Assembly: GCA_008632985.1 (NCBI GenBank)
Contig: QPGO01000011.1
Span: 124,001-188,000 of the forward strand
Origin: Psammoneis japonica
Taxonomy: Eukaryota
Reading direction: 5' to 3'
DNA: 64,000 nt
Shown here in pieces: positions 2,229-33,160 of the stretch. The position numbers were made by a program, and so were the translations under genes. The notes under the pieces are model-generated. The model ran no database searches. It saw only the letters and a program-made list of their open reading frames with translations, and was not told the DNA's origin. Numbering within the stretch: the first letter of the stretch is position 1; every line of letters starts with the position of its first letter.

Positions 2229-3334
2229 ATTGTCGAACCAGACCGTACCATGGGTTGCCGGAAATGGTGTGTCTATCATTGGTGCAGAGAAAAAGCAGTA
2301 GGCTGCAGTCAGTACTATACGCATCGATGTAAATAGTTCAACTCATGTCTCTATGCGTCTAATGACAAGAATCTAAAGGGAAAAGAGAGAATGTTTGAAG
2401 CCGTCGCCTGGAGATCGTGCGTGTTTATTTACTGAGTGTTTTCCGAATCTCGACGAAGGACTTTTTTGAAGGAGGGCAATTGAGAATGTCCGAGGATCTG
2501 ATTGCGATGACTGCATGACACAGCATGATGACCCACCGACTGACTCACACACTTTTCCCCGCCTCATGGATCTGTCCTAGCTAGAATGTTCTCTACTTTC
2601 GCGGATGTCGCCCGATGCAGCAGCAACTATGAATTACGATTGTCTGTGTTCCCGAAACCCTTTTGTCCGTCATCGATTGCCTTCGCCAAAATCAAAAGTG
2701 CATCAGAAAGCTTCTGAGTTCTGTCGGAGAGGTCCACACATCGATTGTTGCTCTCTTCTTTTTGGCTGGAGTCATTCTCCGTGCGTTGTTGTGTTGTGTT
2801 TTTGGCGGTGTGTTTGTCTTGAGAAAAATTGTGACCTGGGGCTTCTGCCAACAGTTCTTCCAGATGGGCTGCCAGGGACTGCTCATTGACGGCACCGCAG
2901 CTTGATTTTCTGCTCAAAATCATGATGTCGCCATCCACCTTCCAAAGCATTTCTCCCATCTTTGGCATTTTGCATTTGAGTGATGGGGCTTTCTGAATGT
3001 GAAAGGGGACCAACTTGCGCCTTGAGGCATTTGTGAGTGATCAGGTCAAGAGGCACAAGACCATGCTTCCCTTTTGTTTGCAATGTCGACTCGTCTCCCA
3101 CAGCTGGCGCCGTGTGCAAGATGTGCTCTAAGTCTTGAGAACATGTGCGCGAAACTTGGTCATTTCGACATGCTCCCATTGCGGTGTCACCCAGATTCAA
3201 AAGAAGCAGATGAAGGGGTGTCCGGCTGTCAACATTTCCTGTGCAGAAAACAGCTGCGGAAAGTCTTGCATCATGGAAACAATGAGGTCCACCCATTCAA
3301 CAAAGATGGGCCCTCCAAGGTTGCCGACAAGCAC
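1790..3334 (+). repeat. Left copy of duplicated host segment (partner 32336-34498), with the DUF2237 gene deleted at ~2568
   Basis: 1790-2567 aligns to 32336-33069; 2570-3334 aligns to 33735-34498. Confidence 0.92.
2627..3334 (-). pseudogene. TpA-hypermutated copy of the 3' end of the ankyrin-repeat gene
   Basis: DSRTPLHLLLLNLGDTAMGA...DDGQKGFGNTDNRNS matches 33788-34498 with Tyr->His/Cys changes and frameshifts. Confidence 0.93.
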
Positions 3335-4094
3335 TCTCGGAAGCAGCTGAAGAGTGCAAGCCAACAAGAATTGTCAGCTTTGCAATTGAGAGCAAGTGAG
3401 CATTGAGCACAATTTGTGGGGGCATCGTGTCTCCACTGTTGCTCTAGAGCAAACAGCAAATGGTGTTGATTTGGCTGACACAGCCAAAGTGTGCGCGCAC
3501 CTTGACAATCTGTTGCGCTGCATTCTGAGATTGTGAAATGAAAAGAAGTGCTTTCATTTGCATTGCTCTGTCACAACAGAAATGTGCAAGCTTTCCCTGG
3601 CCTTTTGGAGCAATCAGGCAAGTGAAAGAGGGGCTGTTGAATGACGCGGATGACACCATTTTGATGCATTGTCATCTGGCCAGTGGCGTTGTTGTCATTC
3701 GTTACAAAGTGCCGTGCTTTCTGGTTTCATGCTGCATTTGTGCAGGAATGCATGTGCATCAGAGCACGCATCACAGTGGTTGACCCCGCCTTTTTGATGG
3801 CAATTTTTGCTCCTTTTGCAGACAAAACATTTGTGGTTTCAAACCTCATCAATTGTGCAGCTGGCAATGAGTGGTTGCCTGTGAAAGACAAATGATTTCC
3901 ACCAGGAAGTCCTGCTCTCAACTGTGAAAAATCACCTGTGCCATCAAACATCCTCCCCTGCATCCTGTCAATGCATGAGACCTCTTTCACTGCAGAAACT
4001 GACAATCAACAACATTTCAACATTTCAGTTTTTGCATCACATGCTGAAATTGACTTAAAATGCATTCTGTGCATTGACTCTTGTTCCGCGTTCC

Positions 4095-5400
4095 TCAATG
4101 AACTGTGAACATTGCTTTTGCTTGTGCACATGGTGCATCAATGAACGCTGCATTGATGCTCTGTTGTCTGGTGTTTTTTAAGTTGCAGCAGGCCTGCACT
4201 GCAATTGGCTCATGTTCTTTGTTGTTGTTGTCTTCTTCACTGTCTTTGTCTTCTTCCTCGTTGCCTCTGTTGCTTGGTTTGTCCATTTTCTCTTCATTGT
4301 CCTCATCGTCACTAGAAAGCTCTGTTGTTGCTTGCTTTTTCATCTGTCTCCTCCAGCTTTTCAGTGGTTTGGCCCTTTTTTTCCTTTTCCTTCACTCTCC
4401 TTTTTCTTTCTGTTGGTGTGCCATGTGTTGATCTGCACACCCGGCTCACTTGCCCTGTCATCCTTCACCTCCCCAAGCAGGGCAGCAAATTGCTTCATTC
4501 CACCATCCTTCCAAGAGTCACGCTGATGTCACGGGTCTGTGTGCAAGGGCACCGGTTTTGTTTCCTTCTCCTCCTCTTTGCTCTCTCCTTCCTTTCCCTC
4601 TGGCTTGGATTTGTGCTCCCAAACCCCAGCAATTTTCCAACACCAACAGTGCCAGTGCCTCATTGCTTGCCATGGCCAGCTCCGTGACCTTTGTGTTGCC
4701 CGACTCTGCCATCCTTCTCCACATGGAATGCACGACTGTTTTGAAAACAAATTTTGCAGCATGAAGGTCCTGTGCTCCATTGTCAATCAGAGATTTGAGA
4801 TTTTTGCACTTTGTAAAATTGAAACAAGGCTTGCCGGAGACAGGGTTGTTGAGGTCCTCACCGGCAATGATCTGATGCACGAACTCAACCATCACCTGCA
4901 TGTTGCGGTGCAGGTCACGGCAGTGCTCCTCCTCTTTTTTTGTCTCTCCTGGAAGAGCATCCTGCTCCAAATTGAGGTGGCAAAGAATGCACTCCCTTTG
5001 TTCTGGCGGGACTTCTTCATCAACCAACCGCGAGTCATTGTGCAGGACCAAACATTGGGACATCTGAGAGTTTTCACAACAACATTGTTTGTGTGGATGA
5101 CTTCAGCAACACAGGGAATGCAACAAAGCTTCAGCTTGTGGCAAAGAAAGGGAAGTGCAAGGATTTCTGGGGGGGGCGACCAATTCGTTCTCTCCACAAA
5201 CTCCCATTTGGATGCACGCATTGCAATCATGCTCCTGAGCTTGGGCCCAAACAGCTCCATTCTGAAGCCATTGGTGAAATGTTCTGTGTTGTCAAAATTG
5301 ACATCATCAGGAAAGACAAAGGAGGGGTCAGGGTTGGCCTCCTCCACTGACTCCAATGGCCATTTGTCTGTTGGCGGAACATGCAGAAAGTGCACGAATC
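4095..5400 (-). pseudogene. Decayed gene of unknown family, paralogous to 19669-20987
   Basis: VTELAMASNEALALLVLENCW...PLHTDP*HQRDSWKDGGMKQFAALLGEVKDDRAS plus acidic/lysine-rich tail; partial copy at ~22330-22950. Confidence 0.6.
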
Positions 5401-7196
5401 ACAACAGTGCACGCTGTGGTCAAATTGACTTTGGGGAGACAGTGTGCTGTTGTGAAAAGTGCAGGAAATGGCACATGCAGGAAAAACACTGAGAACACAG
5501 CAGAGAAACCAGCACAGAGTTCCAGAAACAAGTGTGGTGTGACAATGTGCACACACGTGGAGGTGACTGGGCCGACAGACAGCTGCATGTGCTGCGACAC
5601 ATGATGGGGTGAAAACAAAAAAGCACAAACAAATTAGAAAGCCCATTGTCAAAGGCATGGAGCATGGGTTGTCACGACCCAAAACCCAAAGCATTGGTCA
5701 CAAAACATTTGCAAATGTGAGTTGCTTGAGCATGAGTCATCAACACAAATGGGCAAAAAAATCCTCATGAAAAGGTCAAACACCATGCATTGTGAAAACA
5801 ACGTTCAAGTGTTGGCATCACAATCAAAAGAGCAATGCAAACAAAATGCAATGAGATGACAAAAACCAATGAAAGTGATTGCCACCACATTGCAGGCTCT
5901 GATGTGCTTGGCCCTTGGGCAGTTTCTGCATGAAAAGCATGCCAGGCAATCTCTGGACCACCACCTCAAAGGGCAAATGGCTCCAAACAAAGCTTTGACA
6001 AAGAAACTTTGCAGTTGTTGTTGGTTTTGCAGTGACAGTGCTCGGATTCAAAATTTTCCTTTTTTGGGTTCAAACTTTCAATTTCAACCAACTTTGGGTT
6101 TTAAATTTGAATTTTGAACCCAATTGGGTCCAAAATTGCAGCTTTTCACCCACCCCCAAAAAAGGGAGGCGCGCACCTCTCATGAGGTGGCAGGTGACCT
6201 GCGCACATTTCCTGTCAGCTTCAACTGCACTTGAGCAGGTGTGCCAGAGTTCTTGGCCCACTCAATTTCTGCGTGGCCTGGAACAAACCAAATCCATGCA
6301 GATTTGGCACATTTTGCCCTGCAGAACAGTTTTTGGGAGTGTTTTTCTGGGTCGCAACACAAAATGACACGCAAAATGACACAGACATTGGCATTTTGCC
6401 AATTTCAAAAATGCGGTTGTTTCTGAGGTGCTTTGCAGTGTGCTCTCAATGGAGTGTTGCACATTGTGACACAAGGCACACAATGAACTTGCAAGTGCAC
6501 AGGCTCACATGGGTGGCTGATGGCAAAAAATCACAGCGAAGGTTTGCATTGACAACATCACTTCTGTTGCATTGCAACTGACCTCATGCACTGCCATTCA
6601 TGCTGTGTGTGTTTTTGCTGAGGCTTTGTGTGTTCACAGCTGTTTGACTTGCGTGTTCTGCAGGCTTTGCATTGTTGTGAGGCATCCCAAAGGCACTTTT
6701 TCTCAACCAGCACATCATGGTGGCTCCAATGGCACAGATCACTTCTTTTGGCTGTGCAGCAGTTTGCAACCCCAAAAAATGTGACTTGTTTGCCCCATTT
6801 GTTGGTGAGCCAATGCAACAAATTAAGAGCATGAAGGACAAGACAGATGCGCAGTTGTGTCAAGTCTCAGAAGCAGCTCAAGAGTCAAGCCAACAAGAGC
6901 TGCCAGCTTTGTAATTTAGCAAGTGAGCACTGAGTGTGGTTCATGGGGGCATCATGTCTCCATCATTGTCCTGGAGCAAGCAGCAAATGGCATTGATTTG
7001 ACTGACACAGCCAGTGTGCACACGCACCTCAACAATCTGTTGTGCTGCATTCTGAGATTGTGGAATGAAAAGAAGCACTTGCATTTGCATCGCTCTGTCA
7101 CAACAGAAATGCACAAGCAATCAGGCAAGTGAAAGAGGAGCCATTGAAAGATGCAAATGATGCCATTCTGGTGCATTGTCATCTGGCAGTGTCGTC

Positions 7197-7550
7197 GACG
7201 GGTTCCAGCCCCAGGTGGGACTCCATGTGACATTGGGCCTGCAGAGTTCTGCGTGCAAGCTCCACAGCAAATTTGTGCTGCAATGAAAATGCAAATGATC
7301 GAAAACAGAAAAAGAGGCAATTTTACGAACGTGTCTCCTCCTTCACACTTGGAGCACATCATCAACAGTTTGCCCGGGTGTGCTCTGCAGACATTCAAAA
7401 CACACCCAGCACATTTTCATTCTCATGAATGTTGAAAACAGAAAGCCTTTGGCTTCACAAAACAGGGAGCATGAAACAATTTCGTAGAACGCAACACGCA
7501 GAAAAGTGCGTGCACAACATGCGACGCGATCCAAAAACTGTTGATGTCAG
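7197..7550 (+). mobile_element. MITE-A, 3'-truncated copy
   Basis: Starts GACGGGTTCCAGCCCCAGGTGGGA; internal sequence matches 23156-23551. Confidence 0.7.
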
Positions 7551-7840
7551 TGCATGCTTGGCTCTTCCAAATGGCTTCAAACAAAGCTTTGACAAAGAAA
7601 CTCAGCAATTGTTGTTGGCATCACAGCGCCGGTGTTCAAGTTTGAATTATTTCCTTTTTGGGGTTCAAACTTTCAATTTTGACCCACTTGGGTTTTAAAT
7701 TTGGATTTTTAGCCCAAATGGGTCCAAAATTGCAGTTTTTGACACACCCCAAAAAAGGGAGGCACACGCTTCTCACAAGGTGAGTTTTTTCTAGCCCTTT
7801 CAGAGCAACCAGGTGAGCAAAAGAGGACAACGCCATTTTT

Positions 7841-8367
7841 GACGTGTTCCAGCCGTGCGTGAACCAAATCGTGCACAAAAACGACATTTGCGATCGAACT
7901 TTCACCACCAAAAGTGTAGATTTGCACAAATGCAAATGTTTTGCAACACTGACAAGACTCGTGTGAGTGTTGCAATGTCATTGTTGTTGTGCCATCCATG
8001 TTTTTCATTGCGTCAAAAGATTTGCAACACAACGGATGATTTTCGGCAAAAACATTGCCGTCATTTGGACGTCACCTGAGTGTGTCTTTCCACGATGATG
8101 CTTGGCAGGTTTTCTGCCTGCAAAGAAATCTCAGTGCAAATCTGCTGACTTGCAATCAGCATTGAGTCACTGAGGAAGTTTGTGACACATGTCCCATGAG
8201 GATTTGAGTGCCACTCAAAAAACTGTTTAAGTGCTCACACTCTAGAAGCCTGTGAAAGTCAATCCATCCAAGCATTTTTGTTAAAATGCTCTGTGCACTA
8301 AAACACACACAAATTGTGTTCAAAATCCGATTGTCATTTTGTGCATCACCTGGGACTGGAACACGTC
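7841..8367 (+). mobile_element. MITE-B (527 bp)
   Basis: Perfect 12-bp TIR GACGTGTTCCAG/CTGGAACACGTC, inserted in the T-run of GCCATTTTGGCAC, which is uninterrupted in other units. Confidence 0.85.
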
Positions 8368-9830
8368 TTTTTGGCACATTGTCATCTGGTGGTGTCATCG
8401 TCATTCCTGACAATGAAATGCCATTCTTTCTGGTTTCATGCTGCATCCTTGCGGGAATGTGCATGCTTGGCTCTTGGACAGTTTCTGCTCAAAAAGCACA
8501 CCAGGCGATCTCTGGACCACCCTCTTGAAGGTCAAACAGCTCCAAACAAAGCTTTGAAAAAGAAACTCGGCAACTGTTGTCAGCTTTGCAGTGTTGGTGT
8601 TTGGGTTCAAAATTTTTCCTTTTTTGGGTTCAAACTTTCAACCTTGACTGACTTGGGTTTTAAATTTGGATTTTGAGCCCAACTGGGTCAAAATTGCAGT
8701 TTTCAACCCGCCCCCAAAAAGGGAGGCATGCGCTTCTCATGAGGCGGCAGGCGACCTGTGCACATTTCCCACCAGCTTGAATTGCACTCAAGTGGATGTG
8801 CCACAGTTCTCAGCCTGCACCTTTCCTGCATGGCCTGGCACAACCCAAATCTGTGCAGATTCATTGCACTTTGCCCTGCAGAACAGTTTTTGGGAGTGTT
8901 TTCTGGGTCGCGACACCATTCATGTGGTGTGTTTTGTTGAGGCTTTGCATGTTCACAACCAGTTTTTGGCCCGTTCATTTTCTGCGTGGCCTGGCACAAC
9001 CCAAATCCATGCAGATTTGGCACATTTTGCCCTGCAGAACAGTTTTTGGGGGAGTGTTTTCTGGGTCGCGACACAAAATGACATGCAAAATGACATGGAC
9101 AATGGCGTTTTGCTGACTTTAAAAATGCAGTTGTTTCTGAGGTGCTTTGCAGTGTGCTCTCTGTGGAGTGTGCACATTGTGGCACAAGGCATGCAATGAG
9201 CTCAAGAGCGCTGCAAAGGCTCACAAGGGTGGCTGATTGTGAAAAATCATGTCAAAGGTTCGCGTTCACAATGTTGCTTCTGTTGCATTGCGACTGACCT
9301 CATGCACTGCCATTCATGTTTTGTTTTGCTGAGGCTTTGTGTGTTCACAACCATTTGACTTGCACGTGCTTTCTCTTTCTGCGTTGCGCTTTTGTTCTGC
9401 AGGCTTTGCATTGTTGTGAGGTGTCCCAGAGAGACACTTTTTCTCAACCAGCACATCATGGCAGCTCCAATGGATCAGACCACTTCTTTTGGCTGTGCAG
9501 CCGCTTGTGCCCCAACAAAAATGTGACTTGTTTGGCCCATTTGTTTGTGAGCCAATGCAACAAATTTAGAGCATGAAGGACAAGACAGATGCACAGTTTG
9601 TCAAGTCTCAGAAGCAGCTCAAGAGTGCAAGCCAACAAGAGCTGCCAGCTTTGTAATTTGGCAAGTGAGCATTGAGTGTGGTTCATGGGGGCATCATGTC
9701 TCCATTGTTGTCCTGGAGCAAGCAGCAAATTGATTTGATTTGACTGATGCAGCCAGTGTGCACACATGCCTTGACAATCTGTTGCACTGCATTCTGAGAT
9801 TGTAGAATGAAAAGGAGCACTTGCACTTGC

Positions 9831-10219
9831 GACACGTTCCAGCTCAGGTGGGACCTCGTGCCACTGAACTGTGACATCAACAGTTTTTTGGATTGCATCG
9901 TGTGTCGTGCACATGCATTTCCACGTGTGATGTTCTACAAATTGTTCATCTCCTGTTTGCAAGCCAAGGCTTTCCATTTTCAACATTTGTGAGAATGAAA
10001 ATGCACTGGGTGTGTTCTTTGATGTCTGAAGAACACACCCGGGCAAACTGTCAATGATGTGCTCCAAGTGTGAAGGAGGAGACACGTTCACAAAATTGCC
10101 TCTTGTTCTGTTGGCGATCATTTGTGTTTTCATTGCAGCACAAATTTGCTGCGGAGCTCGCACGCAGAATTCTGCGGGCCCAATGTCACACGGAGTCCCA
10201 CCTGGGAATGGAGCCCATC
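9831..10219 (-). mobile_element. MITE-A, inverted copy
   Basis: Reverse complement of 23156-23551; flanks TTGC/TTGT. Confidence 0.8.
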
Positions 10220-13200
10220 TTGTGCATCACTCTGCAACAACAGAAATGCAGGAACTTTCTCTGGCCCTTTTGGGGTGATTGGGCAAGTGAACGAGGAGCC
10301 ATTGAAAGATGCGGATGATGCCATTTTGGTGCATTGTCATCTGGCAGTGTTGTTGTCATTCATGACGAAGAGCCGCGCTTTCTTGCTTTGTGCTGCATCT
10401 GTGTGGGAATGTGCATGCTTGGCTCTTGGGCTGTTTCTGTGCAAAAAGTGCACCAGGCAATCTCTGATCCACCCTCTCAAAGGCCAAATGGCTCCAAACA
10501 AAGCTTTGACAAAGAAGCTCAGCAATTGTTGTTGGTTTTGCAGTGCCGGTGTTTGGGTTCATTTTTTTTCCCTTTTTTGGATTCAAACTTTCAACCTTGA
10601 CCAGCTCAGGTTTTCAACTTGGATTTTGAACCCGATTGGGTCCAAAATTGCAATTTTCGGCCCACCCCATAAAAAGGGAGGCATGCGCTTCTCACAAGGT
10701 GAGCTTTTCCTGGCCTTTTTAGAGCAGTCAAGTGAGCAAAAGAGGAGCTTTCAAAAGATGCAGAAAATGCAATTTTGGCACATTGTCGTCTGGTGATGTC
10801 ATCATCATTCGTGACGATGAAGTGTTGTTCTTTCTGGTTTTGTGCTGCGTCCTTGCAGGAATGTGCGTGCTTGGATCTTGTGTGGTTTCTGCACAAAAAG
10901 CACACCAGGCAATCTCTGGACCACCCTCTTGAAGGTCAAACAGCTCCAAACAAAGCTTTGACAAAGAAGCTTGGCAATTGTTGTCAACTTTGCAGCGTTG
11001 GTGTTTGGGCTCAAAATTTTCCTTTTTTGGGTTCAAACTTTCAACTTTGACCAATGTGGGTTTTAAATTTGGATTTTGGCCCCAATTGGGTTCAAAGCTG
11101 CAATTTTTGACCCACCCCAAGAAAGGGAGGCACACGCATCTCACGAGGTGGCAGGGAATCTGCGCACATTTCCCATCAGCTTGAGCTGCACTTGAGTGGG
11201 CGCGCCACAGTTCTTGGCTCACTTGTTTTCTGTGTGGCCTGGTGCAACCCAAATCTGTGCAGCTCAGCACATTTTGCCCTGCAAAACAGTTTTTAGAGTG
11301 CTTTCTGGGTTGCAATGCAAAACAACATGCAAAACATGGACAATGGTGTTTTGCCAACTTTTAAAATGCTGTTGTTTCTGAGGCACTTTGTGGTGTGCTC
11401 TCAATGGAACATCACACACCATGGCACATGGCATGTGACAAGCTCAGGAGCACACAGGCCCACATGGGTGGCTGATGATGAAAAAGCATGTTGAAGGCTC
11501 ACATTGACAATTGACAACATTGTTGTTTTTGTTGCATTGCAACCGACCTCATGCACCGCCATTCATGCCACGTGTCACTTCTGTTGTGTTGCAACCAACC
11601 TTGTGCATTGCCATTCATGCTGTGTGTTTTGCAGAGGCTTTGCATGTTTGGAGCCATTTGACTTGCATGTGCTTTCCCTTTCTGCATTGCCCCTTTGTTC
11701 TGCAGGCTCTGCATTGTCGCAAGGCATTCCAGAGACACTTTCTCTCATCAAGAATGTAGTTTCTGCAGTGCAATGGCCACGACAATTCAAAACAAGGCGA
11801 GCACAGATGCAGCATCAGGAACAGTTCACAACAAATGCAGCAACTTGGCGTCATGATGTCTTGAGCTGAACAAGCTCTCAAGCACTCAAACACATCATCG
11901 CACAGTTTTGACAACAGCTCTCCCCGCCTCCACGTGGTGATGCAGAGTTTGACTCAGCAGACCAGTGCATCATGGCAGCTCCCAATGACCCAGATTGCTT
12001 CTTTTGGCTGTGCAGCAGCTCACAACCCAGAAATGGGTGACTCATTTGCCGCATTTGTCAGCAAGCCAAGCAACAAATTTAGAGAGCGAAGGATGAGGCA
12101 GATGTGCAGTTGTTTCAAGTCTCACAAGCAGATCAAGAGTGCAAGCCAACAAGAGTCATCAGCAGCTTTGCAATTTGGCAAGTGAGCATTGAATGCAGTT
12201 GGTGGAGGTGTCACGTCTCCATTGTTGTTCTGGAGCAAACAGCAAATGGCATTGATTTGGCTGACACAGCAACCATGCGTGCGCGCCTTGACAATCTGTT
12301 GCAATGCATTTTGAGTTTGTGGAATGAAAAGAGGCACTTGCACTTGCACTGCTCTGTCACAACAACCAAAATGAGTGGGCTTTCCCCAGCCCTCATGGGG
12401 CAATCAGGCAAGTGAAAGAGGAGCTGTGAAAGATGCGGACGATGCCATTTTGATGCAGCATCATCTGGTGGCATCATTGTTGTCATTTGTGATGAAGCAC
12501 GATGCTTTCTGGTTTTATGCTGATTCTGTGTGGGAATCTGCATGCTTGGTTCCTGGGCAGTTTCTGCACAAAAAGTGTGCCAGGTGATCTCTGGACTGCC
12601 CTCTTGAAGGTTGAGTGGCACCTGACAAAACTTTCACAAGAAACTTGGCAGTTGTTGTTGACTTCGCAGCGTCAGTGCTCGGTTTCAATTTTTCCTTTTT
12701 TTGGGTTCAAACTTTCAATTTTGACCAACTTGGGTTTTAAACTTGAATTTTAAACCCAACTGGTTCCAAAATTGCAATTTTCGACCCACCCCAAAAAAGG
12801 GAGGCACGCGCTTCTCACGAGGCAGCAGGCAACCCACGTGCATTTCCTGTCAGCTTGAGCTGTGCTCAAGTGGGCGCACCACAGTTGTTGGCCCGCTCAT
12901 TTTCTGTGTGGTCTGGTGCAACCCAAATCTGTGTGGAATGAGTGCATTTTGCCCTGCAGAACAGTTTTTGAGAGTGTTTTCTGGGTCGCGATGCAAAATG
13001 ACACGCAAAATGACACGGACAATGGCGTTTTGCTGATTTCAAAAATGTGGTTGTTTCTGAGGCACTGTGCAGTGTGCTCTCAACATGTGACGAGCTCAAG
13101 AGCACACAGGTTCACATGGACAGCTGATGGTGAAAAATCATGTTGAAGGCTTGCATTGACAGCATTGCTTCTGTTGCATTGCAACCAACCTCATGTGCCG

Positions 13201-23551: not shown

Positions 23552-25133
23552 TGTGGTGCGACAAGGAAATGCACACACACACATGGAGGTGACTGGGCAG
23601 ACACGGACAGCAGCATGCGCTGTGACACACAAGGGGGTGAAAACAACAAAGCACAAACCAATTTGAAAGCCAAATTGTCAAAGGCATGGAGCATTGGTTG
23701 TCATGACCCAAAGCTTTGATCACAAAACATTTGCAGATGTGAGTTGCTTGAGCATGAATCATCAACACAAATGGGCAAAAAAATCCTCATGAAAAGGTCA
23801 AATCCTTGCACTGTGAAAACAATGTTCAAGTGTTGGCATCACAGTCAAAAGAATGACACAAACAAAATGCAATGGCACGACAAAAACCAATGAAAGTGAT
23901 TGCCAGCACATTGCGGGCTCTGATGTGCTTGGCTCTTGGGAAAGTTTCTGCACAAAAAGCATGCCAGACAATCTCTGGACCGCCACCTCAAAGGTCAAAT
24001 GGCTCCGACAAAGCTTTGACAAAGCAACTTGGCAGTTGTTGTTGATTTTGCAGCGACAGTGCTCGGATTCAAATTTTTCCTTTTTTGGGTTCAAACTTTC
24101 AATTTTGAACAACTTTGGGTTTTAAATTTGAGTTCTGAACCCAAATGGGTTCAAAATTGCAGTTTTTGACCCACCCCAAAAAAGGGAGGCATGCACTTCT
24201 CAGGAGGTGGCAGGTGACCTGTGCACATTTCCTGTCAGCTTCAACTACACTTGAGCAGGTGTGCCACAGTTTTTGGCCCGTTCATTTTCTGCGTGACCTG
24301 GCACAACCCAATCCATGCAGATTTGGCACATTTTGCCCTGCAGAACAGTTTTTGGGAGTGTTTTCTGGGTCGCAACACAAAATGACATGCAAAATGACAT
24401 GGACAATGGCGTTTTGCTGACTTTAAAAATGCAGTTGTTTCTGAGGTGCTTTGCAGTGTGCTCTCTGTGGAGTGTCGCACATTGTGGCACAAGGCATGCG
24501 ATGAGCTCAAGAGTGCTGCACAGGCTCACAAGGGTGGCTGATTGTGAAAAATCATGTCAAAGGATCGCGTCACAATGTTGCTTCTGTTGCGTTGCGACTG
24601 ACCTCATGCACTGCCATTCATGTTTTGTTTTGCTGAGGCTTTGTGTGTTCACAACCATTTGACTTGCACACGCTTTCTCTTTCTGCGTTGCGCTTTTGTT
24701 CTGCAGGCTTTGCATTGTTGTGAGGTGTCCCAGAGAGACACTTTTTCTCAACCAGCACATCATGGCAGCTCCAATGGTGCAGACCACTTCTTTTGGCTGT
24801 GCAGCCGCTTGTGACCAAAAAAAATGTGGCTTGTTTGGCCCATTTGTTTGTGAGCCAATGCAACAAATTTAGAGCATGAAGGACAAGACAGATGCACAGT
24901 TGTGTAAGTCTCAGAAGCAGCTCAAGAGTGCAAGCCAACAAGAGCTGCTGGCTTTGTAATTTGGCAAGTGAGCATTGAGTGTGGTTCATGGGGGCATCAT
25001 GTCTCCATTGTTTTCCAGGAGCAAGCAGCAGGTTGATTTGATTTGACTGATGCAGCCAGTGTGCACACATGCCTTGACAATCTGTTGCACTGCATTCTGA
25101 GATTGTAGAATGAAAAGGAGCACTTGGACTTGC

Positions 25134-25531
25134 GACATGTTCCAGCTCCAGGTGGGACCTCGTGCCACTGAACTGTGACATCAACAGTTTTTTGGATTGC
25201 GTCGTGTGTCGCACACGTGCATTTCCATGTGTGATGTTCTGCGAAATTGTTCCATGCTCCCTGTTTTGCAAAGCCAAAGGCTTTCCATTTTCAACATTTG
25301 TGAGAATGAAAATGCACTGGGTGTGTTCTTTGATGTCTGAAGAACACACCCGGGCAAACTGTCAATGATGTGCTCCAAGTGTGAAGGAGGAGACACGTTC
25401 ATAAAATTGCCTCTTGCTCTGTTGGCGATCATTTGTGTTTTCATTGCAGCACAAAATTTGCTGCGGAGCTCGCACGCAGAATTCTGCGGGCCCAATGTCA
25501 CATGGAGTCCCACCTGGGAATGGAGCCCGTC
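25134..25531 (-). mobile_element. MITE-A, inverted copy (same insertion site as 9831, so copied by segmental duplication)
   Basis: Same flanks and sequence as 9831-10219. Confidence 0.8.
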
Positions 25532-26965
25532 TTGTGCATCACTCTGCAACAACAGAAATCAGGAGCTTTCTCTGGCCCTTTTGGGGCAATTGGGCAAGTG
25601 AACGAGGAGCCATCGAATGATGCGGATGATGCCATTTTCATGCACTGTCATCTGGCAGTGTTGTTGTCATTCATGACGAAGAGCCGCGCTTTCTTGCTTT
25701 GTGCTGCATCTGTGTGGGAATGTGCATGCTTGGCTCTTGGGCTGTTTCTGTGCAAAAAGTGCACCAGGCAATCTCTGACCCACTCTCTCAAAGGCCAAAT
25801 GGCTCAAACAAAGCTTTGACAAAGAAGCTCAGCAATTGTTGTTGGTTTTGCAGCGCCGGTGTTTTGGTTCAATTTTTGTTGCGTGCTGCACTCTGAGATT
25901 GTGGAATGAAAAGAAGCACTTGCGTTTGCATTGCTCTGTCACAACAGAAATGCACAATCTTTCCCTGGCTCTTTTGTTGGGGCAATCACGCAAGTGAAAG
26001 AGGAGCCATCAAAAGATGTGGATGAAGCCATTTTGATGCATTGTCATCTGGTGGTGTCATCGTCATTCATGACGAAGAGCTGCGCTTTCTTGCTTTGTGC
26101 TGCGTTGGTGTGTGGGAGTGTGCATGCTTGGCTCTTCCAAATGGCTTCAAACAAAGCTTTGACAAAGAAACTCAGCAATTGTTGTTGGCATCACAGCACC
26201 GGTGTTCAAGTTTAAATTTTTTCCTTTTTGGGGTTCAAACTTTCAATTTTGACCCACTTGGGTTTTAAGTTTAGATTTTGAGCCCAAATGGGTCCAAAAT
26301 TGCAGTTTTGACCCACCCCTCAAAAAGGGAGGCACACGCTTCTCACAAGGTGAGTTTTTTCTGGCCCTTTCAGAGCAATCGGGCGAGCAAAAGAGGAGCT
26401 GTCAAAAGATGTGGACAATGCCATTTTGGCACATTGTCGCCTGGTGGTGTCATCATCATCCCTGACAATGAAATGCTGTTCTTTCTGGTTTCATGCTGCA
26501 TCCTTGCAGGAATGTGCGTGCTTGGCTCTTGGACAGTTTCTGTTCAAAAAGCACACCAGGCGATCTCTGGACCACCCTCTTGAAGGTCAAACAGCTCCAA
26601 ACAAAGCTTTGACAAAGAAACTCGGCAACTGTTGTCAACTTTGCAGTGTTGGTGTTTGGGTTCAAAATTTTTCCTTTTTTGGGTTCAAACTTTCAACTTT
26701 GACTGACTTGGGTTTTAAATTTGGATTTTGAGCCCAACTGGGTCCAAAATTGCAGTTTTCAACCTGCCCCAAAAAAGGGAGGCATGTGCTTCTCATGAGG
26801 CGGCAGGGCGACCTGTGCACATTTCCCACCAGCTTGAATTGCACTCAAGTGGATGCGCCACAGTTCTCAGCCCGTTTGTTTCCTGCATCGCCTGGCACAA
26901 CCCAAATCTGTGAAGATTCAGTGCATTTTGCCCTGCAGAACAGTTTTTGGGAGTGTTTTCTGGGT

Positions 26966-27362
26966 GACGCGTTCCAGATGCAGGTGGGAATCCGTGTGAC
27001 ATGGGCCCGCAGAATTCTGCGTGCGAGCTCCGCAGCAAAATCATTGGGCAGTTAATGTGTCAATGACCGCCAACAGAAAATGAGGCAATTTTGCGAATGC
27101 ACAAACTCGCCCATGATTGAAGTGCATCATTTTTCACTTGATGCAGTGCATTCTTCAGACATTGAAGAACAAACCAGGTGCATTGATGTTCCCACAATTT
27201 TGTCAAATGAAACATCTGGGAATTTGCAAAACGGCGAGTCTGGAACAATTTTTTGGAAGATCACACGCAGAAATGCACGTGTGAAACATGCGACGGATGA
27301 CAAAAAATGATTGTGTCACACGTCAGCACTGCGAGCTCCACCACCCAGGGCTGGAATGCGTC
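26966..27362 (+). mobile_element. Divergent MITE-A relative
   Basis: GACGCGTTCCAG...CTGGAATGCGTC termini; internal similarity to MITE-A. Confidence 0.7.
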
Positions 27363-30315
27363 AGGCTGTGACACAAAACAACACACACAAAATGACTCGG
27401 ACAATGGTGTTTTGCCAATTTCAAAAGTGCGGTTGTTTCTGAGGCACTTTGCAGTGTGCTCCACATTTTGCCCTGTGGAACAGATTTTGGGAGTGTTTTC
27501 TGGGTTGCAATGCAAAACAACACGGAAAATGACACAGACAATGGCACTTTGCTGACTTCAAAAATGCGGTTGTTTCTGAGGCACTTTGTGGTGTGCTCTC
27601 AATGGAACATCACACACCATGGCACAAGGTGTGTGACAAGGTCAAGCTTGAGAGTGCGCTGGTTCACATGGGCAGCTGATGGTGAAAAATCATGTTGTTG
27701 AAGGTTTGCATTGACAATGTTGCTTCTGTTGCATCATGACCAACCTCATGCGCTGCCATTCATGTGGTGTGTTTTGTTGAGGCTTTGCATGTTCACAACC
27801 ATTTGACTTGCATGTGCTTTTCCTTTCTGCGTTGCTCTTTTGTTCTGCGGGCTCTGCATTGTCATGAGGCATCCCAGAGACACTTTTTCTCATCAAGAAT
27901 GTCATTTCTGCAATGCGGTGGCCGCAAAAATTCAAAAAGTCACAGACACAGCATCGGAAAAAGTCCATGATGAACATGGCAACTTGGCACTGTGATGTCT
28001 TGAGCTGAGCAAGCTCTCAAGAGCTCAAACTCATCATTGCGCAGATTCAACAACAGCTCTCCCACTCCATGTGGGGATGCAGAGTTTGACTTGGCAGACC
28101 AGTGCATCATGGTGGCTCCAATGGTGCAGATTGCTTCTTTTGGCTGCGCAGCAGTTTGTGACCCAAAAATGTGTGACTCATTTGCCCCATTTGTCAGCAA
28201 GCCAATGTGACAAATGTGGAGGGTGAAGGACAGTTGTGTCAAGTCTCAGAAGCAACTCAAGAGTGCAAGCCAACAAGTGCTGTCAGCTTTGTGATTCAGC
28301 AAGTGAGCATTGAGCGCAATTTGGGGGGCATCACATCTCCATTGTTGCTCTCGAGCAAACAGCAAATGTGTTGATTTGGCTGATGCAGCCAATGTGGTGC
28401 CATGCCTTGACAATCTGTTGTGCTGCATTTTCAGATTGCGGGATGAAAAGAAGTGCTTGCGCTTGCATCGCTCTGCATGACAGAAATGTTTGAGCTTTCT
28501 CAGGCCCTTTTGGGGCAATCAGGGGAGTGAAAGAGGGCAAGTTAAAGAGGAGCTGTCAAAAGATGCAGACAATGCCATTTTGATGCATTGTCATCTGGCG
28601 GTGTCAACGTCATTCATGACAAAGTGCCATGCTTTCTGGCTTTACACTGCATCTGTGTGGGAATGTGAGTGGTTGGCTCTCGGATGGTCTGCACGCAACA
28701 AGTGCACCAGGTGATCTCTGAACTGCCCTCTTGAAGGTCAAACAGCTCCAAACAAAGCTTTGACAAAAAAACTTGGCAGTTGTTGTCAATTTTGCAGTGT
28801 CAGTGTTCGGGTTCAAATTTTTTCCTTTTTTGGGTTCAACCTTTCAATTTTGACCAACTTGGGTTTTAAACTTGAATTTTGAACCCAACTGGGTCCAAAA
28901 TTGCAATTTTTGACCCGCCCCAAAAAAGGGAGGCATGCACTTCTCACAAGGCAGCAGGCAATCTGCGCACATTTCCCATCAGCTTGAGCTGTGCTTGAGT
29001 TGGCGCGCCGCAGTTCTTGGCCCGCTTGTTTTTGGCATGGCCTGGTGCAACCCAAATCTGCACAGGCTTGGCACATTTTGCCCTGTGGAACAGTTTTGGA
29101 GTGTTTTCTGGGCTGCAATGGAAAATGATGTGGACAACGGCATTTTGCAAACTTCAAAAATGTGGTTGTTTCTGAGGGTTTTAAGTTTGGATTTTGAACC
29201 CAACTGCATCCAAAATTGCAGTTTTTGACCCGCCCCAAAAAAGGGAGGCGCGCGTGCTTCTCACGAGGTGGCAGGTGACCTGTGCAAATTTCGCTTTTGT
29301 TGTGTCATGACTGGCCTTGTGCATCGCCATTTATGCTGTGTGCTTTGTTGAGGCTTTGCATGTTTGGAGCCATTTGACTTGCATGTGCTTTCCCTTTTTG
29401 CATTGTTCTTTTGTTCTGCAGGCTCTGCGTTGTCACGAGGCATCCCAGAGACAATTTCTCTTGTCAAGAATGTCATTTCTGCAGTGTGATGGCCATGACA
29501 TTTCAAGAACAAGGCCAAGTCACAGACACAGCATCAGGAAGAGTTCACAACAAATGTGGCAACTTGGCACCACGATGTCTTGAGCTGAACAAGCTCTCAA
29601 GAGCTCTCCCTGCCTCCATGTGGTGATGCAGAGTTTGGCTTGGTGGAGACCAGCACATCATGGTGGCTCCAATGGCACAGATTGCTTCTCTCAGCTGTGC
29701 AGCAGTTCTTGCCAATGCAACAAATTTAGAGGGTGAAGGACAACAAGACAAATGTGCAGTTGTGTCAAGTCTCAGAAGCAGCTCAAGAGAGCAATGGCTC
29801 TTGGCAGTTTCTGCACAAAAAGTGCACCAGGTGATCTCTGAACCACCCCCTCAAAGGCCAAATGGCTCCAATCAAAGCTTTGACAAAGAAACTCAGCAAC
29901 TGTTGTTGGTTTTGCAGCGCCAGTGTTTGGGTTTGAATTTTTTCCTTTTTTGGGCTCAAACTTTCAGTTTTGACCAACTTGGGTTTTAAGTTTAGATTTT
30001 GAACCCGACTGGGTCCAAAATTGCAATTTTTGACCCGCCCTGAAAAAGGGAGCCACGTGCTTCTCACAAGGTGAGCTTTCCCTGGCCCTTTTGGAGCAAT
30101 TGTGTGAGCAAAAGAGGAGCTGTCAAAAGATGCGGGCAATGCCATTTTGGCGCATTGTTGTCTGGTGGTGTCATCATCATTCATGACAATGAAGTGTTGT
30201 TCTTTCTGGTTTTGTGCTGCTTCCTTGCAGGAATGTGTGTGCTTGGCTCTTGGACAGTTTCTGCACAAAAAGCACACCAGGCGATCTCTGGACCACCCTC
30301 TTGAAGGTCAAACAG

Positions 30316-30871
30316 GACGTGTTCCAGCCGCACGTGAACCAAATCATGCACAAAAATGACATTTGCGTGATTTTTGTGTGGCCCCCAACTTGTGATCAAA
30401 CTTTCACCACCAAAAGCATGTGTTCATGCAAATGCAGATGTTTTGCAATACTGACAAGACTCGTGTGAGTGTTGCAACATCATTGTTGTTGTGCTGTCCA
30501 TGTTTTTCATTGCACTGAAAGATTTGCAACACAACGGATGATTTTCGGTGAAAATGTTGCCGTCATTTGGATGTCACCCAAACGCATCTTTCAACGATGC
30601 TGCTTGGCAGGTTTTCTGCCTGCAAAGAAATCTCGCTGTAAATCCACTGACGTGCAATCAGCATTGAGTCTGCTGGGGAAGTTTGTGACACATGTCCCAT
30701 GAGGACTTGAATGCCCAACAAAAAACTGTTTAAATGTCCACACTCCACATGCCTGCAAAAGCCAATCCCCTTGGGCATTTCACATGAAAATGCTCCGCAC
30801 TGCTGCAGGATGCACAATTTACACTCAAAATCGATTGTCATTTTGTGCATCACCTGGGGCTGGAACACGTC
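30316..30871 (+). mobile_element. MITE-B (556 bp)
   Basis: TIR GACGTGTTCCAG/CTGGAACACGTC; 4-bp TSD ACAG interrupting AAGGTCAAACAGCTCCAA. Confidence 0.88.
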
Positions 30872-32335
30872 ACAGCTCCAAGCAAAGCTTCAAGAAACTT
30901 GGCAATTGTTGTCAACTTTGCAGTGTTGGTGTTTGGGTTCAAAATTTTTCTTTTTTGGGTTCAAACTTTCAACTTTGACCAACTTGGGTTTTAAATTTGG
31001 ATTTTAGCCCCAGTTGGGTCCAAAATTGCAATTTTTGACCCGCCAAAAGGGAGGCAAGCGCTTCTCACGAAGCGACAGGAGATCTGTGCACATTTCCCAT
31101 CAGCTTGAGCTGCGCTGTGGTGGGCACACCACAGTTCTTGGCCCGTTCATTTTCTGCCTTGCCTGGTGCAACCCAAATCTGCACAGGCTCAGCACATTTT
31201 GCCCTGTGGAACAGATTTTGGGAGTGTTTTCTGGGTTGCGACACAAAACAACACGCAAAATGACATGGACAACAGCATTTTGCCAACTTCAAAAATGTGG
31301 TTGTTTCTGAGGCACTTTTTGGTGTGCTCTCAATGGAGCATCACACACCATGGCACAAGGTGTGACACAAGATCAAGCTTGAGAGCCCACAGGTTCACAT
31401 GTGGGCAGCTGATGGCGAAAAATCACATTGAAGGTTTGCACTGACAATGTCGCTTCTGTTGTGTCACGACCAACCTCGTGCATTGCAGTTCATGCTGTGT
31501 GCTTTGTCAAGGCTTTGCATGTTTGGAGCCATTTGACTTGCATGTGCTTTCCCTTTCTGCTCTGTTCTTTTTTGTTCTGCAGGCTTTGCGTTGTTGCGAG
31601 GCATCCCAGAGACACTTTCTCTCATCAAGAATGTCATTTCTGCAAGCGCAATGGCCACGACAACTCAAGAACAAGGCCGAGTCACAGACACAGCATTGGG
31701 AAGAGTTCACAACAAATGCAGCAACTTGGCGCCATGATGTCTTGAGCTGAACAAGCTCTCAAGAGCTCAGACACATCATCGCACAGTTTTGACAACAGCT
31801 CTCCCTGCCTCCATGTGGTGATGCACAGTTTGACTCAGCAGACCAGCAAATCATGGCTGCTCCAATGGCGCAGATTGCTTTTTTTGGCTGTGCAGCAGCT
31901 CACAACCCAGAAATGTGTGACTCATTTGCCACATTTGTTGGCAAGCCAATGCAACAAATTTGGAGAGTGAAGGATGAGACAGATGCACAGCAGTTGTGTC
32001 AAGTCTCACAAGCAGCTTTGCAACTCAGCAAGTGAGTGTTGAGAGCAACTTGTGGGGGCATCACATCTCCATTGTTGCTCTGGAGCAAACAGCAAATGGT
32101 GTTGATTTGGCTGCTGCAGCCAGTGTGTGTGCGTGCCTTGACAATCTGTTGTGCTGCACTCTGAGATTGTGGAATGAGAAAAGAAGTGCATGCGCTTGCA
32201 TTGCTCCATCATGACAGAATGTGTCATCTTTCCCTGACCCTTTTGGAGTGTTTGGGTGAGTGAAAGAGGAGCTGTCAAAAGATGCGGGTGATGCCATTTT
32301 GAGGCACTGTTGTCTGGAGGTGTCGACGTCATCAG

Positions 32336-32755
32336 AAAAGAGAGAGCAAAAGCATTGCCAGCCATTGAGGCACGCGTTGCCCACATTCGAAAGGTGGCAG
32401 AATCAAAGCTGCATCTGCTGATTGGACGCCAGCATTCGTGCTGTTTGCACGACTTTTTTGGCGGACAGATGATGGGGGGCATGGCTCAATGAAGCTTGAG
32501 CTTGGATGGGAACAAAGGTGTTGCATTCTGTCAGTTCAATGACATTTCAAACACGAAAGATTGCACTGCAAACTGGTGCTTGAGATTGAATGCGCTGGAT
32601 TTGACAGAAGATCAGAGGCAAGAAATTGTTGATGAGGTGAACTTTGTCTTTGTGCTGAACATCGCAATTTTTGATGAGCTGGAGGGCTCGCCATTGAAGG
32701 CTGTTTTGACCCTTGCATGGAATTCGTTCAAGCACAAAGTCAGTCAGTGCAGCAT
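32336..32755 (+). pseudogene. TpA-hypermutated copy of the heme oxygenase 3' half
   Basis: ARVAHIRKVAESKLHLLIGRQHSCCLHDFFGGQMMGGMAQ* versus AYVARIRKVAESKPYLLIGHQYSRYLGDLFGGQMMGGMAQR; CGA->TGA stop at 32490. Confidence 0.95.
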
Positions 32756-33160
32756 CGAACCAGACCATTGGTGCAGAGAAAAAGCAGCAGGCTGCAGTCA
32801 GTGCTGTGCGCACAGATGTAAATAGTTCAACTCATGTCTCTATGCGTCTGTCATAATGCCAAGAATCTAAAGGGGAAAGAGAGAATGTCTGAAGCCGTTC
32901 TTGGAGATCATGTTTAACTGTGTCTTTGTGAATTCCGAATCGAAAGACTTTTTTAAAAAGGGCAAGGGCAATTGAGAATGTCCTAGGATTCTGAATGCGA
33001 TGACAGAATGACACAGAATGATGACCCGCCGACTGACTCACATCCTTTCCCGCCCTTTCCCCGCCTCATCAACGAAGACCGAGAAATGCTCTGGAAGTGT
33101 GAAGGATTACTGGAGTATATCGCAAAGAAAACACATAAGAAAGTTGATTTGGGAAGAAAC

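Follow-up and report, generated by a model that had tools for sequence, protein, structure and literature searches.

What removes almost every TA dinucleotide from some 30 kb of diatom DNA and leaves the genes on either side intact? In the window (the whole 64,000-nucleotide stretch of Psammoneis japonica DNA analysed here), TA was near-absent from ~2640 to ~32815 and normal in the flanks, in agreement with the first-pass annotation. The observed/expected ratio (o/e) for TA was 0.05 in this domain vs 0.59 in the flanks, and 102 TA were counted in the 30,176 bases of 2640-32815 cf. ~1,227 predicted from flank density (1,248 TA per 30,702 bases). All 1-kb windows from 3001 to 32001 had a TA o/e of 0.01-0.11, and those outside both TA-poor stretches (the domain and 56333-58772) had 0.40-0.79. 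A sliding 1-kb scan, the check that had been advised, was run within the 64-kb window and gave a domain maximum of 0.12 (n = 117) below a flank minimum of 0.36 (n = 113), with zero overlap. TG and CA were enriched (o/e 1.66 and 1.79 in the domain vs 1.16 and 1.17 in the flanks). CG was depleted to an o/e of 0.43 vs 0.97 in the flanks, a drop absent from the first-pass annotation.

2616..32808, no strand: TA-depleted, CG-depleted, TG/CA-enriched domain of ~30.2 kb, from composition scans with edges from alignments

The spectrum and polarity of the change were read against two gene fragments in the domain whose partner copies in the window are intact.

1266..2228, + strand: intact heme oxygenase gene (Pfam PF01126, E 4e-60), unmutated reference copy
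32337..33054, + strand: copy of the heme oxygenase 3' half and 3' flank (partner 1791-2563), mutated only as far as 32808
33788..36691, - strand: intact ankyrin-repeat gene (967-aa frame), unmutated reference copy
2567..3334, - strand: copy of the ankyrin gene 3' end (partner 33732-34498, 89.7% identical), mutated from ~2616

The intact partners had a normal TA density of ~38-39 per kb, with 21 sites in 1791-2330 (heme oxygenase) and 27 in 33790-34498 (ankyrin). By script count all 21 TA sites were changed in the heme oxygenase copy (11 to TG, 8 to CA, 1 to CG and 1 to AA; an earlier hand count had given 16/16), as were 25 of the 27 in the ankyrin copy at 2625-3334 (14 to TG, 10 to CA and 1 to CG; previously ~25/26). 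Pooled, 46 of 48 TA sites (96%) had changed, with TG or CA as the product at 43, cf. ~5% of non-TA positions (23/479 and 27/704 aligned positions in the two paralog comparisons), which is the clear TpA excess that a spectrum against unmutated relatives had been predicted to hold. CG sites were changed at 10 of 20 positions in the heme oxygenase copy and 12 of 34 in the ankyrin copy (2625-3334). Because 2 of the 48 TA sites became CG and the non-TpA changes in both copies were enriched in transitions (39 transitions to 11 transversions), the TpA process is not perfectly TpA-exclusive or others contribute.

The remainder of the domain comprised two repeat blocks and a core.

3335..13400, no strand: left repeat block, dispersed/direct, whose copies in the window are 74-97% alike; o/e 0.05 for TA and 0.35 for CG
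13500..21300, + strand: core, present once in the window and bearing successive long + strand frames; o/e 0.05 for TA and 0.61 for CG
14155..15507, + strand: decayed ORF in the core, 451 aa, of a family without annotation
21300..32336, no strand: right repeat block, with direct repeats in common with the left block; TA o/e 0.04, CG o/e 0.35

An example of a left/right repeat pair is 8960-10567 vs 24267-25877 (97.2% identical). The core had a summed contig depth of ~3,900-16,800 in run X1, vs ~55 for unique DNA. The domain thus consists of repeat blocks, a high-depth core and adjoining gene fragments, which bears out its earlier description as restricted to a repeat-rich block. TA-free blocks retain only TGA stops and have no Tyr codons, a point for annotation, since long false ORFs result (145 frames of ≥90 aa in the 30-kb domain). 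None of these 145 ORFs had a viral or transposon Pfam match, including to reverse transcriptase, and none of the ORFs of ≥90 aa in the left block (3335..13400) had any Pfam match. The core ORF had 30 relatives (best E 1.7e-105, 59% identity, or 57% by BLASTP); searches for a Pfam match, a solved relative or a clear fold match for its family, and for relatives in viral contigs, found none.

Tyr codons provided further controls. Tyr shared by the intact heme oxygenase and four diatom homologs is replaced by Cys in the mutated copy, and the 17 Tyr of the core ORF's best relative (hand count) correspond to 7 Cys, 5 His, 3 Phe and 2 gap positions, with 0 kept. Four controls, namely two paralogs and the Tyr losses in two mutated genes, therefore support the direction first proposed, TA to TG/CA (A:T to G:C at TpA). 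Both strands were hit about equally, as had also been claimed, with 25 TG to 18 CA vs the paralogs and Cys 7 to His 5 in the core ORF; changes did not fall in strand runs (226 observed vs 209.7 ± 9.9 in shuffles).

Could the missing TA be an artefact, arising because sequencing calls a modified base at TA as G, or because the consensus went wrong in a repeat block? Run X1 is one sample, perhaps the assembly's own source, with short-read-like contigs and an unrecorded platform, and the sequence was found in runs of this sample only, which is the point in favour of an artefact. In this independent contig set, 4554-4811 was reproduced with 0 differences at a depth of 59.5 (flanks 53-61), and misreading on both strands would instead yield two half-depth paths per site. 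G>A or C>T occurred at only 162 places in 20 kb, vs ~700 expected had the reads held TA. One variant contig, covering 2896-3219, departed from the window at 9 positions, among them a TG in place of CA at a site that is TA in the intact paralog; it is the sole hint here of a raised de novo rate. Indels and transversions are present in the copies as well, besides 5-8% ordinary divergence. Since short-read-like contigs of this one sample reproduce exact stretches of the domain at single-copy depth, we consider an artefact very unlikely.

The edges of the domain were located by hand position count on the paralog alignments, cross-checked against listed TA positions. The left edge lies at 2616-2646, with three TA sites converted at 2616-2622, TA retained at 2628 and 2635, and conversion again from 2646 on; no mutation is seen in the initial 50 bases of the ankyrin copy. 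The right edge falls between the last converted site (32808) and the first retained TA (32819), a precision of 11 bases. Beyond it, the tail of the heme oxygenase copy (32816-33054) retained 5 of 5 TA and differed from its partner by 8.3% (91.7% identical; 8 transitions, 10 transversions). The first feature to the right of the edge is an ORF whose stretch is missing in the left copy of the duplication.

32987..33679, + strand: DUF2237-like ORF, flanked by the heme oxygenase copy and the ankyrin gene

Because the right edge lies within a continuous duplicated block and the partner copies are intact, the process acted on DNA in place, at limits set by position. This bears directly on a homology-dependent, RIP-like process that senses duplicated DNA and mutates it. 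In its favour, no DNA of the domain is unique, all of it recurring in the window or the genome, and both gene fragments are duplicates. However, the partners at 1791-2330 and 33790-34498 have normal TA, the duplicated tail escaped, as did the ankyrin copy over its first 50 bases, and the domain edges differ from the duplication breakpoints, which together make this explanation quite unlikely. The label 'repeat-induced' (cf. the 'reverse-RIP' of the first-pass annotation) is accordingly unsuitable, as intact partners and an unmutated part of the duplicated block point to position as the trigger.

RIP in ascomycete fungi changes C to T mainly at CpA, thereby creating TpA, and is homology-triggered with both copies mutated. 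The domain resembles RIP in its dense, dinucleotide-specific transitions that wreck repeats on both strands in sharp domains with some leakage into neighbours. Fungal RIP itself was rejected as a candidate on both direction, which is opposite (TA o/e 0.05, CA o/e 1.79), and trigger, since the partners keep 21 and 27 TA and the tail at 32816-33054 keeps 5/5. The contrasts drawn earlier were sound in that TpA is destroyed here and created by RIP, and in that 5-methylcytosine deamination cannot remove TpA; the latter accounts only for the CG to TG/CA part of the change (22 of 54 CG sites in the pooled copies, 41%; CG o/e 0.43).

A family of 10 repeat copies was informative as to timing. Both TG and CA were found among the copies at 53 sites, of which 23 still had CG in some copy, 1 had TA and 29 had TG/CA only, a pattern indicating that the copies were hit independently after diverging. 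Between the members of the youngest duplicated pair, which match at 97.2% over 1,600 bases, there were just 3 CA/TG and 2 TA/x differences, so this pair was copied once TA was already gone.

The strand that was changed depended on the flanking base. At TA sites with a 3' C on one strand only, the adenine next to that C was the one changed in 18 of 20 cases (p 0.0004), and an adenine with a 3' G was changed in only 3 of 16. Among presumed TA-derived sites of the repeat family, a 3' C gave 26 TG to 7 CA and a 5' G gave 13 to 26 (Fisher p 1.4e-4, a value that ignores kinship and overstates independence because the copies are related by descent), and sites still showing CG had no such bias (p 0.45). 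TTAA persisted, with 39 occurrences in the domain (~10 of them derived from one repeated motif) vs ~51 in the flanks, or 78% of the flank density, taking flank composition, as in the product-asymmetry argument, as a proxy for the ancestral repeat. The other 15 NTAN words were at ~5% of flank density, and ATAT, GTAC, GTAT and ATAG were at 0.

This preference has a bearing on ADAR-like A-to-I hyperediting of repeat transcripts followed by reverse transcription into DNA. ADARs act on double-stranded RNA and prefer a 3' G, and here the edges show that DNA was altered in place, C is the preferred 3' neighbour and the adenine with a 3' G loses 13 of 16 contests. Moreover, host gene fragments adjoining the repeats were also mutated, coding and template strands were equally hit, and the edge lies within a collinear genomic block that runs on into unmutated DNA; 0 of 145 ORFs encode a reverse transcriptase or other transposon domain. 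Editing via a retro-copied unit was rejected as a candidate on this edge and on the lack of a reverse transcriptase among these ORFs. A-to-G change with a 5' U/T neighbour does recall ADAR (10.64898/2026.01.13.699255), yet we regard this route as very unlikely.

The footprint is closer to that of TadA/ADAT2, which deaminates an adenine preceded by U/T, and the TAC preference here (18/20) can be set beside the bacterial TadA substrate loop, U-A-C-G. To our knowledge, natural action of TadA/ADAT on chromosomal double-stranded DNA at such scale is not established. For a TadA-8e variant, a 'YAC' context of the edited A is described (PMC13109818). A target adenine preceded by T and followed by C would thus match a TadA/ADAT-like enzyme, as a resemblance of footprint only.

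A-to-G and T-to-C at TA are an identical duplex change, and the chemistry is unreadable from sequence. A TET/JBP-like oxidase that makes 5-hydroxymethyl- or 5-formyl-uracil at TpA of silent DNA would also yield T-to-C, as both bases mispair with G, and the footprint can be restated as 5'-GTA-3' with the middle T hit; in dinoflagellates, 5-hydroxymethyluracil favours TpA. On the other hand, the window bears no sign of modified T, near-complete conversion would demand a very high mispairing rate, and the sole measured precedent was read as adenine deamination in the preprint that reports it (10.64898/2026.01.13.699255). Thymine as the target is, on balance, doubtful.

Alternatively, there might be no dedicated enzyme, and TpA damage might simply go unrepaired in compact silent chromatin, e.g. 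if hypoxanthine repair were excluded. A domain set by position, with CpG decay and a general transition excess, would be consistent with this. Spontaneous adenine deamination, which is slower than that of cytosine, is nevertheless a poor fit because such selectivity and speed would be difficult to obtain from it: TA changed at 96% of sites vs ~5% of others and only 41% of CpG, with a clear strand choice of TAC over TAG. In Bigelowiella natans, according to the preprint, the rate is ~1000-fold up and switched on in only some lines (10.64898/2026.01.13.699255), and we find unrepaired damage an unlikely explanation.

Overall, at a rough probability of 0.6, we favour the reading that two transition processes, each specific to its own sequence context, have rewritten a silent high-copy repeat block in place, and that the TpA one is aimed by position and likely TadA/ADAT-like. 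The block would sit at a tandem-duplication junction between the heme oxygenase and ankyrin genes of the diatom. The dominant process would convert the adenine of 5'-TA-3' to G on either strand, yielding TG or CA, with 5'-TAC-3' preferred and TTAA largely spared; it would be near saturation and would have remained active after repeat divergence. It would be aimed by position at the repeat block and ~0.5-0.7 kb of the DNA beside it, as far as the nearest genes, with neither homology nor an RNA-copy intermediate involved. The second process would be the ordinary CpG to TpG/CpA decay expected of methylated diatom repeats. The likeliest chemistry would be enzymatic deamination, with a TadA/ADAT-like enzyme, recruited to silent chromatin, turning adenine in DNA into hypoxanthine. 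The sequence itself shows the spectrum with its polarity, edges, strand symmetry and flanking-base preference, from which we infer the chromatin targeting, the enzyme and a defence role.

The first-pass annotation knew of no described mechanism, a statement overtaken by a 2026 preprint in which identical TpA to TpG/CpA hypermutation was measured in mutation-accumulation lines of B. natans (Mettrop et al., bioRxiv 10.64898/2026.01.13.699255). The preprint describes 124 TpA-depleted, CpA+TpG-enriched clusters; de novo mutations in two regions numbered 231, of which 230 were A>G or T>C, and the GC-biased ones were all at TpA. Its authors favour adenine deamination and propose an ADAT2 homolog (10.64898/2026.01.13.699255). 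Of the 30 windows from 3001 to 32001, 28 are of this B. natans type, depleted in TpA and enriched in CpA+TpG; the other two are 15001 (TA 0.06, CA+TG 1.44) and 20001 (TA 0.04, CA+TG 1.51). The two cases share TpA to TpG or CpA change on either strand, localised domains and, probably, silent or foreign-looking DNA as the target. B. natans is, however, a chlorarachniophyte with integrated viral DNA as the target, whereas here the host is a diatom (a stramenopile) and the target is high-copy repeats, in which no viral or transposon domain was recognised, and host gene fragments beside them; a rate was measured there and a long-term footprint alone is seen here. CpG decay shares the domain edges here, together with a TAC preference and TTAA escape, and the terms 'CpG', 'TTAA' and 'context' occur 0 times in the main text of the preprint (supplementary tables outside this count).

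Natural targeted A:T-to-G:C hypermutation of chromosomal DNA had been measured in this single preprint, in one alga (10.64898/2026.01.13.699255). New here are a second lineage, the strand footprint (adenine before C, 18/20), TTAA escape and co-located CpG decay. Since the same signature is found, saturated, in a diatom, the process is not peculiar to one species; diatoms are of major ecological importance, are amenable to genetics and belong to a lineage distinct from B. natans. Any mechanism has to account for DNA altered in place, edges sharp to ~11 bases by position, both strands equally affected, a strand choice of TAC over TAG/TAA, TTAA immunity and the presence of CpG decay at the same place. 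Should a natural adenine deaminase that acts on double-stranded DNA be responsible, it would interest base-editing work. More tentatively, and with odds somewhat against it, a DNA adenine deaminase system of old origin, guided by chromatin, might be common to diatoms and chlorarachniophytes; it would parallel fungal RIP on the A side and serve to disable silent repeats and invaders. If so, TpA erasure would disable such DNA permanently by removing all TAA/TAG stops and all Tyr codons and, with CpG decay, would push it to a TG/CA-rich end state; the footprint and its two-lineage distribution would then let comparative genomics find the enzyme.

A second TA-poor stretch, absent from the first-pass annotation, was also present in the window.

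56333..58772, no strand: second, small TA-poor stretch with 15 TA (o/e 0.09), TG o/e 1.42, CA o/e 1.34 and CG o/e 0.82

Relatives were sought for the ORF at 57967-58926, which overlaps it, and none were found. The stretch itself is single copy within the window.

The near-absence of TA between 2640 and 32815, reported in the first-pass annotation, proved real, as 102 TA were counted over this domain vs ~1,227 predicted from the density in the flanks, i.e. the normal-TA DNA outside two TA-poor stretches of the window (1,248 TA in 30,702 bases). Observed/expected (o/e) TA frequencies per 1-kb window were 0.01–0.11 throughout 3001–32001 and 0.40–0.79 outside both TA-poor stretches, and in sliding windows the domain maximum of 0.12 (117 windows) fell far under the flank minimum of 0.36 (113 windows), without overlap. 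Within the domain, TG and CA were raised (o/e 1.66 and 1.79, respectively) and GC content was unchanged. The TA loss in the signature originally described was thus upheld, but a fall in CG (o/e 0.43 in the domain cf. 0.97 in the flanks) had been missed. Stops in the domain were TGA only (0.024 per base); because TAA and TAG were gone, leaving TGA as the sole stop, it contained 145 frames of at least 90 aa, several exceeding 300 aa, which are mostly meaningless and a trap for gene callers.

Paralogous copies were ordered by self-comparison of the window and pairwise alignment, giving, from left to right:

1266–2228: intact heme oxygenase with its 3′ flank, leftmost of the ordered parts
2567–3334: copy of the 3′ end of the ankyrin gene, right of the intact heme oxygenase
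~10 kb: left repeat block, between the ankyrin copy and the core
7.8 kb: core, single copy in the window, between the repeat blocks
~11 kb: right repeat block, sharing direct repeats with the left block
32337–33054: copy of the heme oxygenase 3′ half with its flank
DUF2237-like ORF, between the heme oxygenase copy and the intact ankyrin gene
33788–36691, minus strand: intact ankyrin gene

In this arrangement the unit "heme oxygenase 3′ half – DUF2237 – ankyrin 3′ end" is duplicated in tandem; the junction holds ~29 kb of repeats, and the left unit later lost its DUF2237 part. The remaining flanking genes were ordinary algal genes (topoisomerase, lipase, SIR2-ZZ, RRP5, DXR and RPL7), and diatoms accounted for all of the best named heme oxygenase relatives (best match overall, 75% identical), which places the organism among the diatoms and not in Bigelowiella. 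No tRNA genes or Rfam families that could serve as boundary elements were found across the window. The SIR2 deacetylase, fused to a ZZ zinc finger, is encoded at 43686–45299 (minus strand), 11 kb from the domain, and a duplicate outside the domain was also observed, as 38832–39258 and 42160–42604 form direct repeats (81% identical) in normal-TA flank.

Comparison with the intact partners indicated the direction of change. All 21 TA sites of heme oxygenase were altered in its domain copy (11 to TG, 8 to CA, 1 to CG and 1 to AA), as were 25 of 27 TA sites in the ankyrin copy (14 TG, 10 CA, 1 CG), vs 10 of 20 (6 TG, 3 CA, 1 AG) and 12 of 34 (7 TG, 5 CA) CG sites, respectively; overall, 96% of TA sites were altered cf. 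41% of CG sites. Remaining substitutions affected 23 of 479 (heme oxygenase) and 27 of 704 (ankyrin) aligned positions and were transition-rich (17:6 and 22:5). Outside the domain (32816–33054), the heme oxygenase copy kept 5 of 5 TA, although 8 transitions and 10 transversions separated it from its partner (18 of 218 positions). Tyrosines common to the intact heme oxygenase and four diatom homologs were Cys in the domain copy, and the core ORF, a decayed frame at 14155–15507 (plus strand, 451 aa), kept none of the 17 Tyr of its best relative (7 Cys, 5 His, 3 Phe and 2 in a gap; hand count on the alignment). The outgroups confirm a polarity from TA to TG/CA, the direction proposed in the first-pass annotation, which is supported by both paralog counts as well as the outgroup Tyr to Cys/His replacements.

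The edges of the domain were located by position counts on the paralog alignments, checked against TA positions in the window. On the right, conversion ended at 32807–32808 and TA was first kept at 32819, with homology to the intact copy extending 240 bases further; on the left, three sites were converted at 2616–2622, 2628 and 2635 were kept, and conversion was unbroken from 2646, the ankyrin homology beginning 50 bases before this edge. TA density was normal in the intact partner copies and therefore the process was not triggered by duplication as such, nor was its substrate an RNA or a not-yet-inserted element. A homology-triggered process is likewise difficult to reconcile with these partners and with a right edge that lies inside a homologous stretch. 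Its target was chromosomal DNA, spanning the repeat block and ~0.5–0.7 kb per side, as far as the neighbouring genes. CpG decay had the same edges as TA loss, for which the simplest reading would be a silent, methylated chromatin domain.

We also considered whether the TA loss was a sequencing or assembly error. The stretch occurred in three runs, all from one sample, and was compared with contigs of one of these, X1, which were built independently of the assembly, although the X1 platform is not on record and X1 may be the assembly's own data. Depth was 53–61 over unique flanks, and X1 contigs matched the domain exactly at 4554–4811 (depth 59.5, 0 differences) and 12809–13033 (0 differences). 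Had a base been misread on both strands, each site would have separated into two paths of half depth, whereas these were exact domain pieces at single-copy depth. TA in the reads, previously named as the mark of an artefact, was scarce, with just 162 places showing G>A or C>T in X1 contigs over 20 kb (one sample). Summed X1 depth over repeats was 465–46,318, indicating families in tens to hundreds of copies.

Each TA site presents two candidate adenines, one on each strand. Where a single adenine was flanked 3′ by C, that adenine was altered at 18 of 20 sites (p 0.0004), cf. 3 of 16 where a single adenine was flanked 3′ by G (p 0.02), 9 of 20 with a 3′ T and 3 of 10 with a 3′ A. Presumed TA-derived sites in a repeat family showed TG:CA ratios of 26:7 with 3′ C vs 13:26 with 5′ G (p 1.4e-4, which is generous as copies are non-independent), and family sites still showing CG had no such bias (p 0.45). 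Surviving TA were not random: TTAA made up 39 of 102, at 78% of flank density, 18 surviving TA were located in TTTAAA, and ATAT, GTAC, GTAT and ATAG were absent from the domain. Tetranucleotide gains agreed with this footprint when flank composition was taken as a proxy for the ancestral repeat (NCAA/TTGN, +23.9 per kb, vs NTGA/TCAN, +9.1). TG and CA showed no strand runs in the domain, giving no indication of long processive tracts along one strand; given also the balance of Cys and His replacements in the core ORF, hits were independent and both strands were used equally.

In a 10-copy family with a 550-base unit, TG and CA both occurred among copies at 53 sites (23 retaining CG in some copy, 1 with TA and 29 with TG/CA only), indicating that copies were mutated independently after divergence. 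The most recent pair of duplicates, 97.2% identical along 1,600 bases, showed 14 CG/TG or CG/CA differences against only 3 CA/TG and 2 TA/x ones; thus, TA was already spent at copying while CpG decay went on. Five CA-to-TG differences relative to paralogs fit a path from CA through TA to TG in which new TA is quickly removed. The sole X1 contig over 2896–3219 (depth 49) had 9 differences from the window, 8 of them transitions, including one site that is TG in the contig, CA in the window and TA in the intact paralog; 5 further transitions were found at 3242–3300, cf. ~5 differences in the unique flank at 1–2600. These differences may reflect haplotypes or strains that diverge mainly within the domain, the contig being a putative allele, and the TG/CA/TA site hints at activity continuing between haplotypes or strains.

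In full-text searches of openly available main texts, TpA-specific hypermutation or TpA-depleted repeat domains were reported solely in a preprint on Bigelowiella natans (Mettrop et al., bioRxiv 2026). According to its main text, 231 of 302 nuclear mutations in mutation-accumulation lines fell in integrated giant-virus and virophage regions; 230 of these 231 were A>G or T>C, all GC-biased ones were at TpA, and rates were ~6e-7 per site per generation, an effect seen in some lines only. That text also describes 124 TpA-depleted, CpA- and TpG-enriched clusters and 324 coding sequences (mean TpA frequency 0.0018) in which reverse transcriptase and DDE domains are over-represented, and proposes an ADAT2-like DNA adenine deaminase; neither CpG, diatoms nor TTAA is mentioned in it, nor any further sequence context, although the supplementary tables may give the context of each mutation. 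When the thresholds given by Mettrop et al. were applied, 28 of 30 1-kb domain windows passed. The earlier statement that no mechanism had been described was therefore not borne out, since the same signature has been measured in B. natans. The signature here extends to diatoms the TpA hypermutation measured not long ago in a chlorarachniophyte; it is real and striking but not unprecedented. To this the window adds position-defined sharp edges, co-located CpG decay, a TAC-preferring footprint and TTAA immunity as new constraints.

Any mechanism would have to explain why the change depends strictly on the TA step, uses both strands equally, prefers TAC and outpaced CpG decay (96% vs 41% of sites), as well as the on/off behaviour that the preprint describes in B. 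natans. By our reasoning, an exclusively TA-dependent process would yield no double changes to CG, and 2 of 48 TA sites showed one. Together, these features argue for an enzyme rather than passive damage or failed repair in silent chromatin. We consider chromatin-targeted deamination of adenine in DNA by a TadA/ADAT-like enzyme the most likely mechanism, with a probability of about 0.6 for this reading as a whole and a lower one for a TadA/ADAT-like enzyme itself being the agent; thymine modification with mispairing would be a less likely route. The anticodon-loop substrate of bacterial-type TadA is U-A-C-G, which matches the preceding T and following C of the changed adenines, whereas ADARs prefer a 3′ G, unlike the 3′ C preferred here, and a TadA/ADAT-like deaminase is therefore favoured. 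RNA editing with retro-copying would thus have the wrong 3′ context for an ADAR, and the edges argue instead for action on the chromosome. A TadA-8e variant described with a 'YAC' context in the text of PMC13109818 also matches the TAC preference.

Pfam searches of the 145 domain ORFs matched only a heme oxygenase fragment and three chance-level hits, and no homologs of ORF 16652–17680 were found. The best relative of the core ORF was 57% identical by BLASTP (59% in a homolog search, E 1.7e-105). Its family was without Pfam domains in 18 relatives, save unrelated domains in one, and without a solved relative in a profile search. The core ORF model (mean pLDDT 62.8) had no Foldseek match in the PDB at E ≤ 0.001, and a wide VIA-align search reached Z 5.2 at best, limited to a helical hairpin. 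Relatives of P0122 alone were not found in metagenome and viral contigs, and 0 of 31 relatives elsewhere were Tyr-free (Tyr 1.2–5.2%). The family is unannotated and mostly helical, with 30 relatives (P0122–P0151) and an invariant G-W; a nearly invariant Tyr maps to position 247 of the core ORF, in a stretch where Tyr in the best relative corresponds to His in the window.

The second TA-poor stretch, at 56333–58772, contained 15 TA (TA o/e 0.09, TG 1.42, CA 1.34) with nearly normal CG (0.82), was single copy within the window, and overlapped ORF 57967–58926, for which no homologs were found. It may have arisen by the same process with CpG left undecayed, in which case TA loss and CpG decay would be separable. 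Directly to its left, a 178-base unit is repeated in tandem at 55866–56192 (1.8 copies, 95% matches), and a C-rich, microsatellite-like (CCCCACT)n array with periods of 7, 14 and 21 bases occupies 52695–52817.
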